Positions 2,931-10,287 of a stretch of 10,350 nucleotides of DNA are shown here, piece after piece. The DNA comes from a virus (taxonomy: Duplodnaviria > Heunggongvirae > Uroviricota > Caudoviricetes): the IMG/VR virus record IMGVR_UViG_2617270945_000014; one strand, given 5' to 3'. The notes under the pieces are model-generated. The model worked only from the letters and a program-made list of their open reading frames with translations, ran no database searches and was not told the DNA's origin. Both the position numbers and the translations under genes were made by a program. Position 1 is the stretch's first letter, and each line of letters begins with the position of its first letter.

Positions 2931-3086
2931 TTACTCCTCAGGTTCGTAAGCTGTGAAGACAGCGACCTCCGTCTGGCCGGTTCGGAGTCGTACCTCGCAG
3001 AGGTCTTTCCTCGTTACCAGTGCCGTCACTATGACGGTTAAACAGATGACGATCAGGGCGATTAACATCGCCTTTTGCTGCTTCAT
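2931..3086 (-). CDS. hokD: Hok/Gef-family type I toxin (small membrane-depolarising peptide), HokD/RelF-like
   Basis: 51-aa product MKQQKAMLIALIVICLTVIVTALVTRKDLCEVRLRTGQTEVAVFTAYEPEE, recognised from memory as near-identical to E. coli HokD/RelF and close to Gef/HokC. It has one transmembrane helix and the conserved Cys. Start taken at the internal ATG (3084-3086) rather than the 70-aa in-frame extension. Confidence 0.9.
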   Translation of the reverse strand: MKQQKAMLIALIVICLTVIVTALVTRKDLCEVRLRTGQTEVAVFTAYEPEE

Positions 3087-3323
3087 AGCCTGCTTCCCCT
3101 TGCCTTTCGGCACGTAAGAGGCTAACCTACATTTGTGAGACATAGATTGGGCCTCAGATTAATGTTAAGCGTCTTGCAGGACGCGAAATGTTAACTGGGG
3201 CTTTTCTCTATCTGCCTTTCAGTGTTCATGCCTGAGACAGATAGCCTCAAGCACCCGCAGCCATTCTACTTAACTCACGTCACCTCGCCAATATGAAATC
3301 AATCAGAAAGGTGATCCATAAAA

Positions 3324-7854: not shown

Positions 7855-7930
7855 TACCCACAGGTAAACAAAAGTCAATACCCATAGGTTGTTTACCTTG
7901 CGGTAATCGCATCTATTATTTACCTATGGA
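7855..7930. promoter_or_regulatory. Divergent promoter/operator region between the cro-like and repressor genes (OR-like)
   Basis: Three copies of a 12-bp dyad motif: TACCCACAGGTA (7855-7866), TACCCATAGGTT (7879-7890) and TACCTATGGA (7921-7930, overlapping the repressor ATG). There is also a perfect 10-bp inverted repeat, AGGTAAACAA (7862-7871) / TTGTTTACCT (7889-7898). Confidence 0.65.
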
Positions 7931-8345
7931 CAAATATGAATTTAGACGACAGCAACTCATCAAAATTCGTGATGAGAAATGCGATGGTAAAGCGGTTAAC
8001 GTGGCCAGAAAGATCGGGCGCGAGCCTTCTTATGTATCAAGAATGTTGTACCCAGAGGGGAAAAAGGGAAAAAAACGGATCGCTGATGATATGGTGGAGA
8101 TTATCGAAGAGTCCTTTGGGTTACCCCGGGGATGGATGGATGGTATCGTTTCATCATCAACGAACACAGCCTCCAGTTATGAAACAAGGGTTCTAACGCC
8201 ACGACAACGTATTTTTTTAGATCTCTTAGACGAACTGCCAGAAAGTGAAGCGGATAAATTATTAAAAACTCTTGAAGAGAAAAAACAGTATTACAATATG
8301 ATCTACGAAGAAATCCGTAAAAAGAAAGCACAAAACGCATCATAG
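7926..8345 (+). CDS. Prophage repressor, DicA/RacR-like HTH protein (no S24 peptidase domain)
   Basis: 139-aa ORF divergent from the cro-like gene. It has an N-terminal HTH-like region, and its C-terminal LPESE…LL motif resembles DicA (…LPESEQ…) as recalled. No Shine-Dalgarno sequence precedes the ATG, so the mRNA may be leaderless. Confidence 0.7.
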   Translation: MDKYEFRRQQLIKIRDEKCDGKAVNVARKIGREPSYVSRMLYPEGKKGKKRIADDMVEIIEESFGLPRGWMDGIVSSSTNTASSYETRVLTPRQRIFLDLLDELPESEADKLLKTLEEKKQYYNMIYEEIRKKKAQNAS

Positions 8346-8385: not shown

Positions 8386-8426
8386 TTTACCCATGGGTAT
8401 TTACTTTTTAAATACCTATGGGTATC
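8386..8426. promoter_or_regulatory. Second operator cluster (OL-like) downstream of the repressor gene
   Basis: The perfect palindrome TACCCATGGGTA (8388-8399) and TACCTATGGGTA (8413-8424) lie 25 bp centre-to-centre, the same motif and spacing as in the OR-like region. Confidence 0.6.
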
Positions 8427-8610: not shown

Positions 8611-8763
8611 ATGGATACTATCGATCTTGGCAACAGCGAATCTCTGGTATGTGGCGTGTTCCCCAACCAGGACGGTACGTTCACCGCGATGACGTATACC
8701 AGAAGCAAAACGTTTAAAACTGAAGCTGGCGCGCGTCGCTGGTTAACCAGAAACACTGACTGA
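8611..8763 (+). CDS. DUF1391 small protein (YdfA/YdaF-like), first gene of the early-left operon
   Basis: 50-aa product MDTIDLGNSESLVCGVFPNQDGTFTAMTYTRSKTFKTEAGARRWLTRNTD, preceded by GAGG 5 nt upstream. The longer 77-aa ORF from 8530 lacks a Shine-Dalgarno sequence. Sequence and position match YdfA/YdaF as recalled. Confidence 0.7.
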   Translation: MDTIDLGNSESLVCGVFPNQDGTFTAMTYTRSKTFKTEAGARRWLTRNTD

Positions 8764-8774
8764 TGAGGTTGACG

Positions 8775-9095
8775 ATGGAATTTAAAGATTTACCAGTACC
8801 ATTCCAGGAAATGGCATCGAATGTGGTTCGCTCTCAACTGGCGACTCTTGACCTGAGTACCGTAGAAAAAGAAACCATCGACAATATATCCGGTAACGTA
8901 CGCCGAGCCTTTATCGGGCTGTACGAAGAGAAGCAGCTCTCTGATAACCAGGATTTACATGAAAAATACTTCCTGGATCTAATGGACATCATTGATAAGG
9001 GGTTTGGCTTGTTAATGAAAAAGAAAGGGATTCGAATAGAACCCCTTGAAAATTACTTTGCAACAAAAAGCATTAATTCTTTTGATTCAAAATAA
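8775..9095 (+). CDS. Hypothetical protein, 106 aa, in a low-GC cassette (alternative start 8763)
   Basis: ORF in a markedly AT-rich block. GAGG lies 6 nt upstream of ATG 8775, and the alternative ATG 8763 overlaps the upstream stop (TGATG). Acidic/Lys-rich composition; no recognisable motif. Confidence 0.5.
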   Translation: MEFKDLPVPFQEMASNVVRSQLATLDLSTVEKETIDNISGNVRRAFIGLYEEKQLSDNQDLHEKYFLDLMDIIDKGFGLLMKKKGIRIEPLENYFATKSINSFDSK

Positions 9096-9348
9096 GAGAA
9101 TTAATTACAGACTTAACATGCTCTTTCTCATGATTGAAGCTCTCATGATTGAAAGTGCCGGGTTGAAGCGAGTCGATATAATCAACAAGACTCTGTCGTA
9201 CGACTTCATTTTTATCCATAACAGATGCAAGAAATGAAATTGCTAAAAGAGTTATATCACTACGCGCCGCAGCATGTTGCAATGCTTTATCAAAATTATT
9301 AATCTGGCGTATCAGGGAGTTAATGATTTCATCATTTTCAGTCGACAT
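9073..9348 (-). CDS. Hypothetical protein, 91 aa, convergent with the 106-aa ORF
   Basis: Strong AGGAGG Shine-Dalgarno sequence 5 nt upstream of ATG 9348. AT-rich coding region; 3' ends overlap the + strand ORF by 23 nt. The upstream in-frame extension to 9561 is GC-rich, Arg-rich and begins with TTG, so it is judged non-coding. Confidence 0.55.
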   Translation of the reverse strand: MSTENDEIINSLIRQINNFDKALQHAAARSDITLLAISFLASVMDKNEVVRQSLVDYIDSLQPGTFNHESFNHEKEHVKSVINSLILNQKN

Positions 9349-9683
9349 TTCACCCTCCTGAGGGTTGGTGATTAAGGAGTTCTCCACGGGTGAGGTGGAG
9401 TGCGTGCGCCGGACACGGGTGAGCATCCGGCACTGACAGTTTACTGAAAGGATATTTCCCTGAAAAGTCAGACCATAACGCGAAAGCGCCCGGCGAGGTA
9501 GCTGGTTCATAGATAGCCTGTCGTTAAATTTTCGTCGACCGTGCGTTTCCGGTTGTGGCAATCCGCGAAATGGCGCGGCGGTAAGTATGGCGGGGTTATT
9601 CCTTCCCCCGTTGAGGACACCGGGTTGTCAGGTTGACCATACGCTTAAGTGACAACCCCGCTGCAACGCCCTCTGTTATCAAT

Positions 9684-9741
9684 TTTCTGGTGACGTTTGG
9701 CGGTATCAGTTTTACTCCGTGACTGCTCTGCCGCCCTTTTT
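9684..9741 (+). ncRNA. dicF: DicF small RNA (ftsZ-targeting sRNA of Qin/Kim-type prophages); 5' end approximate
   Basis: Sequence TTTCTGGTGACGTTTGGCGGTATCAGTTTTACTCCGTGACTGCTCTGCCGCCCTTTTT matches DicF as recalled. It ends in an intrinsic terminator and lies immediately upstream of dicB, as in K-12. Confidence 0.75.
9699..9741 (+). terminator. Intrinsic terminator forming the DicF 3' end
   Basis: GGCGG (9699-9703) … CCGCC (9731-9735) stem, followed by TTTTT (9737-9741). Confidence 0.65.
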
Positions 9742-9910
9742 AAAGTGAATTTTGTGATGTGGTGAATGCGGCTGAGCGCACGCGGAACAGTTAAAACCAA
9801 AAACAGTGTTATGGGTGGATTCTCTGTATCCGGCGTTAATTGTTAACTGGTTAACGTCACCTGGAGGCACCAGGCACCGCATCACAAAACTCATTGTTGA
9901 GGGCGCGATA

Positions 9911-10099
9911 ATGAAAACGTTATTACCAAACGTTAATACGTCTGAAGGTTGTTTTGAAATTGGTGTCACTATCAGTAACCCTGTATTTACTGAAGATGCC
10001 ATTAACAAGAGAAAACACGAACGGGAGCTATTAAATAAAATATGCATTCTTTCAATGCTGGCCCGTTTACGTCCGATACAAAAAGGATGCTGGCAATGA
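9911..10099 (+). CDS. dicB: Cell-division inhibitor DicB (MinC-dependent)
   Basis: 62-aa product MKTLLPNVNTSEGCFEIGVTISNPVFTEDAINKRKHERELLNKICILSMLARLRPIQKGCWQ, matching DicB as recalled. GAGGG lies 8 nt upstream of the ATG. Confidence 0.85.
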   Translation: MKTLLPNVNTSEGCFEIGVTISNPVFTEDAINKRKHERELLNKICILSMLARLRPIQKGCWQ

Positions 10100-10287
10100 A
10101 TACAGCATTTGCACTTGTTCTGACAGTTTTTCTTGTTTCCGGAGAGCCAGTTGATATTGCAGTCAGTGTTCACAGGACAATGCAGGAGTGTATGACTGCA
10201 GCAACCGAACAGAAAATTCCCGGTAACTGTTACCCGGTCGATAAAGTTATTCACCAGGATAATATCGAAATCCCGGCAGGTCTTTAA
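10096..10287 (+). CDS. ydfD: YdfD-like small lysis-associated membrane protein (63 aa)
   Basis: MNTAFALVLTVFLVSGEPVDIAVSVHRTMQECMTAATEQKIPGNCYPVDKVIHQDNIEIPAGL with an N-terminal transmembrane helix. Its start overlaps the dicB stop (ATGA at 10096-10099), and AAGGA lies 9 nt upstream. Confidence 0.75.
   Translation: MNTAFALVLTVFLVSGEPVDIAVSVHRTMQECMTAATEQKIPGNCYPVDKVIHQDNIEIPAGL

Follow-up and report, generated by a model that had tools for sequence, protein, structure and literature searches.

Few bacterial small RNAs have been known for longer than DicF, and work continues on the part of the dicBF operon in cell division, phage resistance and the virulence of enterohaemorrhagic Escherichia coli (EHEC). 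In the Qin prophage of E. coli K-12 the order is small genes, a long untranslated region, dicF, dicB and ydfD. RNase E cuts the 5' end of DicF from a polycistronic transcript; the 3' end of the 53-nucleotide (nt) form comes from a Rho-independent terminator and that of the 72-nt form from RNase III (PMC5069750). The same literature calls the region ahead of dicF a long untranslated region and names no structured domain in it (PMC5069750), and the RNA just upstream of DicF has so far been treated as spacer. Folded leaders are known from other lambdoid phages: the put RNAs of HK022, HK639 and HK75, phages without N, act in cis, need no phage protein partner and conserve their non-paired nucleotides (PMC9378689). 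The put class suppresses termination in cis via the zinc-binding domain of the β' subunit of RNA polymerase. Here we analyse a dicBF leader, positions 9349–9741 of a 10,350-nt stretch of viral DNA (the window; IMG/VR record IMGVR_UViG_2617270945_000014), in which DicF is preceded by what appears to be an autonomous, conserved, folded RNA domain of about 117 nt (9552–9667, + strand) made of a helix junction plus a pseudoknot. As far as was checked, such a pseudoknotted domain with an invariable terminator or small-RNA partner, common to phages P1 and P7 and very widespread, is new.

The segment 9349–9741 matches a lambdoid prophage beside ompW in E. coli O112ab:H8 (NZ_CP062910) at 100% identity, and its positions 9363–9741 align to the K-12 ydfC–dicF spacer with 97.6% identity, the end of K-12 ydfC lying 20 nt before the match. 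The DicF that an earlier reading of this DNA from its letters (the sequence-only reading) had placed at 9684–9741 is authentic: in a covariance search the Rfam DicF family (RF00039) matches 9685–9736 (+) over its full model (1–52 of 52) with 76.7 bits, the gathering score being 48. The 53-nt form would begin at 9684 (9684–9736), and the terminator hairpin (9700–9735, –15.1 kcal/mol) is followed by a U-tract of five (9737–9741). DicF lies upstream of dicB on the same strand, in an operon of the dicBF type, with an intrinsic terminator at its end. If the position is taken from the Rfam match and the enzyme from the literature, it follows that RNase E would cut between 9683 and 9684 (CAAU|UUUC). 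The segment had been called a probable processing leader for DicF, which agrees with the published RNase E end and with its being non-coding dicBF leader; this is established knowledge and no discovery. Very probably the segment is the copy of the early-left dicBF untranslated leader that belongs to this ompW-integrated prophage, and it is built of four parts: a mosaic left half (9349–9550), the RNA domain (9552–9667), an A/U-rich single-stranded linker of 16 nt (9668–9683) and DicF with its own intrinsic terminator (9684–9741), the last three on the + strand.

The borders of the domain emerge from comparison. More than 120 related prophage and phage loci were gathered from IMG/VR by two short anchors and mapped onto the window with blastn. 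About 20 loci, together with phages such as Ayreon, cdtI, 2H10 and Stx2c phages, have only 9552–9675 in common with the window. In phages P1 and P7 the common part shrinks to 9563–9660, with 76.8% and 82.2% identity and flanks that are otherwise unrelated. These smallest common segments end at the borders of helices. Homology borders recur at 9349, 9363 (K-12 type), 9385, 9403, 9410/9414, 9455/9463 and 9552, and distant phages keep only the core; the left half, 9349–9550, is therefore patched together by recombination, and to its right lies a conserved core with sharp limits.

An alignment of 57 distinct versions of the domain gave a consensus fold by RNAalifold (coordinates on the + strand). 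The closing helix P1 pairs 9552–9559 with 9660–9667, and within it lie P2 (9563–9567 with 9574–9578), P2a (9579–9582 with 9619–9622), P3 (9591–9595 with 9606–9610) and P4 (9624–9630 with 9650–9656), the last with a short inner extension, P4b (9631–9633 with 9643–9645). A pseudoknot of 6 bp was recognised by eye, in which GUAUGG in the P2a–P3 internal loop (9585–9590) pairs with CCAUAC in the loop of P4 (9637–9642). The sequence-only reading had noted a hairpin here, in what it took for one generic leader. The hairpin is present, its arms 9622–9630 and 9650–9658 forming nine perfect base pairs and the 11-nt arms first proposed holding one C·C mismatch, and it is P4 of a conserved, modular, pseudoknotted domain common to phages P1 and P7, which that reading missed.

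On the consensus structure 96.3% of the cells in the 57 sequences hold standard pairs. Eight pairs are changed on both sides, against 2.3 ± 1.1 in column shuffles (none of 500 reached eight) and 0–4 with slid partners, and compensatory changes are present in helices P1, P2a, P3 and P4 and in the pseudoknot. Helix P1 occurs as GUUGUGGC/GCCACAAC, or as GCUGCAAC with G·U pairs, whereas the Ayreon type has GUUGUGGU/ACCACAAC; phages P1 and P7 close the domain with a helix of another sequence, AGCUGUUA/UUACGAGCU, in which a natural U-to-A variant improves the pairing. A U–A pair in P2a is C–G in P7. P4 is UUGUCA/UGACAA, versus UUGCCA/UGGCAA in P1 and P7 and UCGUCA/UGACAG in loci L029 and L113. P3 has at least six self-complementary versions (GGGG/CCCC, CUGGGG/CUCCAG, CAGGGG/CUCCUG, GAGG/CCUC, CAGGUG/CACCUG and CUGGG/CCCAG) and was misaligned by MAFFT, so that the pair counts understate its covariation. 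In the pseudoknot the majority has U–A; P7 reads GUAUGG/CCAUAC and P1 GCAUGG/CCAUGC, and a U·G intermediate exists in L049/F1055 and L035. When IMG/VR was scanned for pseudoknot copies with both positions altered from U and A, all 71 held C and G; 70 of these loci are P1-like and one, L287, is a lambdoid locus of the DicF type, whose C–G pair is an independent event.

G·U pairs are frequent, occurring in 32 and 36 of the 57 sequences at two positions of helix P1 and in 40 and 55 in the inner extension of P4. They would be A·C on the other strand, and so the strand that folds is the + strand, that of the operon transcript. This bears on the idea of a DNA-level element, in which the hairpins would act in single-stranded DNA as a priming signal or the region would serve as a recombination site. 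Three adjacent hairpins do resemble single-strand initiation signals, single-stranded DNA tolerates G·T pairs, and mosaic breakpoints cluster around the region. The domain is nevertheless always on the strand transcribed in an early operon leader, with an intrinsic terminator behind it on that strand, the breakpoints flank the domain and, with three exceptions, do not cut it, and no link to replication origins was seen. Such an element is scarcely credible at this locus.

A plain leader, in essence the picture of the sequence-only reading, would be a spacer joining ydfC-type genes to DicF, with the promoter of a minus-strand gene in it by accident, conserved through recent descent and recombination. 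Most copies of the domain are indeed more than 95% identical, the effective sequence number of its covariance model is 1.3, and the left half of the leader is clearly a patchwork. Folding energies are unremarkable as well: the z-scores of the minimum free energy (MFE) are –1.65 for 9349–9741 and –2.06 for 9545–9741, and the comparative structure has –37.2 kcal/mol, plus about –5.9 for the pseudoknot, versus an MFE of –45.9. With z-scores as weak as these, the description of the leader as structured, made in the sequence-only reading, must rest on the comparative evidence, which bears it out; single-sequence thermodynamics does not. What a spacer leaves unaccounted for is a core kept at 77–82% identity in P1 and P7 amid unrelated flanks, conservation that stops at helix borders, the compensatory changes in four helices and the pseudoknot, and a domain that stays while the cassette downstream diverges or is swapped. 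The plain leader is accordingly very unlikely, and both it and the DNA-level element fit the compensatory changes and the strand-specific G·U pairs poorly.

Of 5426 complete E. coli genomes, 4418 carry the P2–P4 core; its 9463 places, of which 507 are on plasmids, amount to a median of two and a maximum of eight per genome. P1-like plasmids carry the domain in 510 records. Taxonomic breadth rests on phage, plasmid and E. coli collections, and among the matches listed by a 16-mer scan of genome contigs, which chance matches filled, Escherichia albertii alone was real. Among 40 matches listed, none lay under an annotated RNA feature and one lay under a coding sequence labelled 'hypothetical protein', the rest lying under nothing. 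The only trace of the domain found in annotation is the note 'dicF-like region' in the P1 record AF234172 (68791–68892), which marks sequence similarity only and spans P4 to the terminator and not the whole domain. No family of Rfam 15 matches 9552–9667 (E ≤ 10) or the P1 and Ayreon counterparts (E ≤ 1). The domain is undescribed as far as the literature was checked; an earlier description in older papers is possible. One further copy, 85% identical, lies in locus L146 (PP818812, 'Actinobacillus phage vB_Apl-pPE4') beside a region of E. coli type with DicA, YdaT, Kil and exonuclease VIII, and the stated host of that record looks doubtful.

The domain does not travel alone. In all 133 loci with enough flank it is followed by a hairpin and T-run that begin 23–63 nt after the 3' strand of P4, the run having five or six T's in nearly all of them, and the terminator stands about 10–50 nt behind the domain. 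The hairpins have 32 distinct sequences, which fall into about ten cassette classes. DicF is one class; the others comprise DicF with other 5' parts, several unrelated combinations of seed and hairpin, a near-seedless hairpin in the Ayreon type, with about 12 nt between helix P1 and the terminator stem, and, in phages P1 and P7, a short GC hairpin whose loop is UUCG. Alternative cassettes occupy the position of DicF in loci L007/L103/L109/L146, L079/L135/L128, L008/L029/L113, L024/L041/L123, L085, L131, L049/L145 and L003. A scan anchored on DicF found the full domain upstream of all 124 DicF copies. The domain is thus obligatorily coupled to a downstream terminator or small-RNA cassette on the transcribed strand of the early leader. 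The conserved unit in evolution is domain plus hairpin/U-tract cassette, with DicF as one of about ten interchangeable cassettes, and the alternatives resemble an allelic series of prophage small RNAs, so far unstudied, whose seeds differ.

In many variants the 3' strand of helix P1 (9660–9667 and equivalents) reads GCCACAACA(A/G)CC and so includes CACAACA, the consensus sequence targeted by the R1 seed of GcvB (PMC4104026). The cassettes, or this strand, were considered as the EHEC anti-small-RNA AgvB or the Pas small RNAs and rejected; those belong to the moron site of the PR'/late region.

Loops and junctions are invariant across the copies of the domain while the cassette differs, and the early-left operons examined showed no recognisable N-like protein. 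In phage P1 the domain lies about 40–50 nt after the C1-controlled P1ban promoter (Pban) and before tRNA-Asn, tRNA-Thr, tciABC, tRNA-Ile and ban; in Ayreon it lies about 300 nt after the annotated PL. No convincing + strand promoter was found just upstream of the domain by eye or by scan, which agrees with the processing of DicF from the operon transcript. Because loops and junctions do not vary, the cassette does and no phage protein is common to the carriers, the domain most likely contacts a conserved host machine and not the cassette. Our tentative proposal, drawn by analogy from position and architecture, is that it may act in cis, setting the balance of termination and read-through at the terminator next to it and perhaps at others farther on. 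The domain would fold during transcription and, with no pairing to the cassette, bind that host machine, for which RNA polymerase is the most plausible candidate, in a manner resembling put of HK022 and the EAR element of Bacillus. Termination or processing would then give a DicF-type small RNA; read-through would reach dicB and the exonuclease, xis and int genes in this prophage, and the tRNA genes and ban in phage P1. With more reserve still, the domain might be placed in a new class of cis-regulatory RNA, one that either reprograms RNA polymerase, as a third and structurally unrelated factor-independent antiterminator after put and EAR, or senses a cellular signal.

The main rival explanation reads the same coupling in terms of small-RNA maturation or insulation. 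The folded domain would then be a portable 5' module of a small-RNA precursor, defining or presenting the RNase E site for a precise 5'-monophosphate end whatever lies upstream, shielding the seed against pairing with upstream RNA, or protecting the upstream product from 3' exonucleases. RNase E makes the 5' end of DicF from the operon transcript, the domain precedes every DicF copy examined, a hairpin and U-tract always follow it with a short single-stranded stretch resembling a variable seed, and helix P1 closes the domain 16 nt before the cut. The CAAU|UUUC at the end of the linker is compatible with the known preference of RNase E. Simple hairpins would, however, suffice for insulation or protection, which leaves the invariant loops, junctions and pseudoknot of P1/P7 and lambdoid copies unexplained; the Ayreon type leaves almost no seed, and phage P1 has no upstream mRNA to protect. 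We know of no precedent for a 117-nt pseudoknotted RNase E guide. A role in maturation seems on balance somewhat unlikely.

Distinctly less probable is an autonomous RNA, either cut out by RNase E in the linker and another nuclease on the 5' side of helix P1, as a stable RNA of about 120–130 nt that acts in trans, perhaps as a decoy for a host protein or defence factor, or serving as a ligand-sensing riboswitch that controls the terminator. The compact closed fold with its pseudoknot and invariant junction nucleotides would suit it, as would the passage of the domain between P1/P7 and lambdoid phages without a conserved phage protein partner. Transcriptional riboswitches are canonically laid out in this way, as a leader with a conserved fold and an intrinsic terminator, and in phage P1 a primary transcript begun at Pban and ended at the terminator would make a discrete RNA some 180 nt long. 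Against a riboswitch, inspection of the cassette classes revealed no conserved antiterminator pairing between domain and terminator; an alternative hairpin can be drawn for the DicF class, and no equivalent was traced by inspection in the other classes. Neither the window nor the P1 and Ayreon counterparts matched an Rfam riboswitch or ribozyme family at E < 10, and a purely trans-acting RNA leaves the obligatory terminator partner unexplained. A tRNA- or tmRNA-like element was rejected, ARAGORN finding no gene in the window and no conserved CCA following helix P1.

Several points count against control of termination by the domain. The antitermination step itself is an analogy, the domain resembles put in neither sequence nor structure, and the obligatory terminator next to it fits small-RNA maturation equally well; put needs no terminator immediately behind it, whereas the domain always has one. 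HK022 has both putL and putR, whereas the domain occurs once per prophage region, and a search of related loci, about 0.96 Mb in all, gave no second copy for the rightward operon at E ≤ 1. Qin-type prophages have the domain after the ydfABC-type genes, about 1 kb from the promoter. All copies are from Enterobacteriaceae, their diversity is as shallow and their folding z-scores as weak as given above, and the covariation, which rests on a handful of independent events, is no formal statistical proof. A few natural variants, in L128, L135 and L146, lack the 5' strand of helix P1.

The domain and its cassette form a conserved portable unit common to lambdoid prophages and phage P1. Should the domain prove to govern termination or the maturation of small RNAs, this would account for the expression of dicB and of the recombination and excision genes beyond the DicF terminator, and for transcription in phage P1 that starts at Pban and passes a strong terminator to reach the tRNA/ban operon; the ten or so cassettes would also be a handle for finding new prophage small RNAs. 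If it represents a new cis-regulatory class, the domain would decide, at the terminator behind it, between a DicF-type small RNA and the early-left genes: dicB with the recombination and excision functions or, in phage P1, the tRNAs and ban.

Other properties of the leader follow from its mosaic left half. The G+C content is 53–57% across 9375–9675 and 31–38% in the gene cassette to the left, and the leader, which had been described as GC-rich, is so relative to its neighbours and not in absolute terms. The same description had found no credible open reading frame (ORF), and coding can be dismissed. The longest stop-to-stop frames within 9363–9684 are 88 aa (– strand) and 57 aa (+ strand). The in-frame extension upstream of the ATG of the 91-aa minus-strand gene meets stop codons in four related loci, a C-run of four versus five C's makes a 1-nt length difference between close relatives, and no frame is conserved across the leader.

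A 10-bp direct repeat, CACGGGTGAG, is present as reported at 9385–9394 and 9414–9423 in copies that are 100% identical, each in one of two small hairpins read from the sequence of the + strand (CTCCAC/GTGGAG, 9382–9400, and GCCGGA/TCCGGC, 9408–9431). The copies are located at two mosaic breakpoints (9385 and 9410/9414). Since the 29-bp unit between them is missing in loci L007 and L118, the repeat is a dispensable insertion/deletion polymorphism at mosaic junctions and no required motif. An imperfect repeat, CGCGAAAGCGCCCGGCG/CGCGAAATGGCGCGGCG (9479–9495 and 9564–9580), apparently mediates deletions. In L128 and L135 a junction at AACGCGAAA has removed the 5' strand of helix P1, which L146 also lacks. 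Farther left, the stretch 9450–9472 contains CCCUGAAAA, a 9-mer identical to nine bases of lambda boxB, which was considered as a lambda-type nut site; it was rejected, lacking the 3' arm and occurring in phages without N protein. The region of CCCUGAAAA forms a CCCUGA-AAAG-UCAGGG hairpin in some lineages, with no N gene nearby.

The left end of the leader is also the start of a replaceable gene slot on the minus strand. The 91-aa gene of the window (9073–9348, –), a hypothetical protein in the 100% identical record, gave no Pfam, PHROG or PADLOC match. Its 5' leader consists of 14 lineage-specific nucleotides (9349–9362, –), in which GGAGGG is the Shine-Dalgarno sequence, 5 nt ahead of the ATG, and K-12 homology begins at 9363; the left half of the leader thereby supplies the ribosome-binding site and, by inference, the promoter. 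In other prophages at least four further, unrelated minus-strand ORFs begin at the same junction, namely a second 91-aa allele and ORFs of 92, 73 and 77 aa, the last from phage Evi. The loci concerned (L004, L023, L040, L124 and L137) have the Shine-Dalgarno region in common, and none of these ORFs matched Pfam, PHROG or PADLOC. With its single start junction the slot neatly illustrates a moron insertion site. A separate lineage joins at 9403, carrying its own GGAGGATAAAATG start.

Because unrelated minus-strand genes start at one junction and another lineage joins at 9403, it is a sound inference that their promoter should lie in the common DNA to the right of 9403. The proposal of the sequence-only reading that the 91-aa gene is transcribed from within the leader is in this sense well founded comparatively, although a sigma-70 consensus scan of the minus strand over 9350–9684 found no site at its threshold (at least 9 of 12 matches with 16–18 nt spacing). 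A candidate recognised by eye (–35 TTTTCA at 9466–9461, a 17-nt spacer and –10 TAAACT at 9443–9438) scores 8 of 12, below that threshold, and its DNA is common to all lineages with a minus-strand gene. A transcript from it would start near 9431 and run leftward, away from DicF. The antisense coupling that had been suggested would therefore involve the operon transcript over the 91-aa gene and not DicF itself.

The operon around the leader is early-left and repressor-controlled, the counterpart of the dicBF operon of K-12 Qin. On the + strand the window holds a gene for a repressor-like protein of 139 aa (7926–8345), a DUF1391/YdfA-like gene (8611–8763), a 106-aa gene without an informative family match (8775–9095), the leader with DicF, dicB (9911–10099; Pfam PF05358, 126.9 bits) and a DUF1482/YdfD-like gene (10096–10287), behind which the full record has exonuclease, xis and int. 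Directly after the repressor-like gene a 16-bp palindrome with a T-rich tail (8388–8424) is likely the terminator between the repressor gene and the early-left promoter region. Elsewhere in the window a full-length sok antitoxin RNA (Rfam RF01794, 120.5 bits; 3081–3256, –) adjoins a hokD-type toxin gene annotated in the identical record.

Between dicF and dicB the spacer 9746–9893 is closed by a long-range helix of 19 nt, 9746–9764 with 9875–9893, an inverted repeat that is 89% complementary. The 3' end of the 72-nt DicF, at about 9755, falls in the 5' arm of this helix, and the helix is therefore probably the RNase III site that yields this form. The Rfam family STnc100 (RF02076), whose model contains the closing helix, matches 9748–9888 with 38.4 bits, below its gathering score of 47; the match concerns this neighbouring spacer and does not cover the domain.

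Set beside the known systems, the leader is nearest to that of K-12 Qin, which has the same sequence at the identity given above, the same DicF and the same order of small genes, untranslated region, dicF, dicB and ydfD; it differs in having ydfB and ydfC where the window has the 106-aa (+) and 91-aa (–) genes. Small RNAs such as SroC and CpxQ likewise sit at a Rho-independent terminator in or at the end of an mRNA and have their 5' end made by RNase E (PMC9438474), but no conserved pseudoknotted domain is known directly upstream of the cleavage site in their precursors. The likeness to EAR is one of analogy only, since EAR belongs to another phylum, has another fold and gives no Rfam match to the domain. 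EAR, a conserved structured RNA with a pseudoknot and a length of about 120 nt, is a processive antiterminator that lies within an operon behind its first genes and reportedly promotes read-through of intrinsic terminators downstream.

Homology to put was sought and rejected: with filters off the covariance model of the domain gave at most 7.8 bits on HK022 putL and putR, and BLAST with putL retrieved HK75, HK639, phiEt88 and others and no phage that carries the domain. The 9-mer GCGCGGCGG, common to the domain and to stem II of putL, lies in a different structural context and was judged to be chance. A put site has about 70 nt in two stem-loops and a triplex; the domain, at about 117 nt, is a pseudoknotted junction. 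The two are alike in belonging to an early, repressor-controlled leader of a phage without N, and the position of put matches that of the domain in the Ayreon type and in phage P1. The 'dicF-like region' of P1 and P7 stands directly behind the C1-repressed promoter and before the tRNA genes, tciABC and ban, has another sequence in its closing helix, and carries the short GC hairpin in place of DicF, but it has the same helices, the same pseudoknot and, after them, the same kind of intrinsic terminator.

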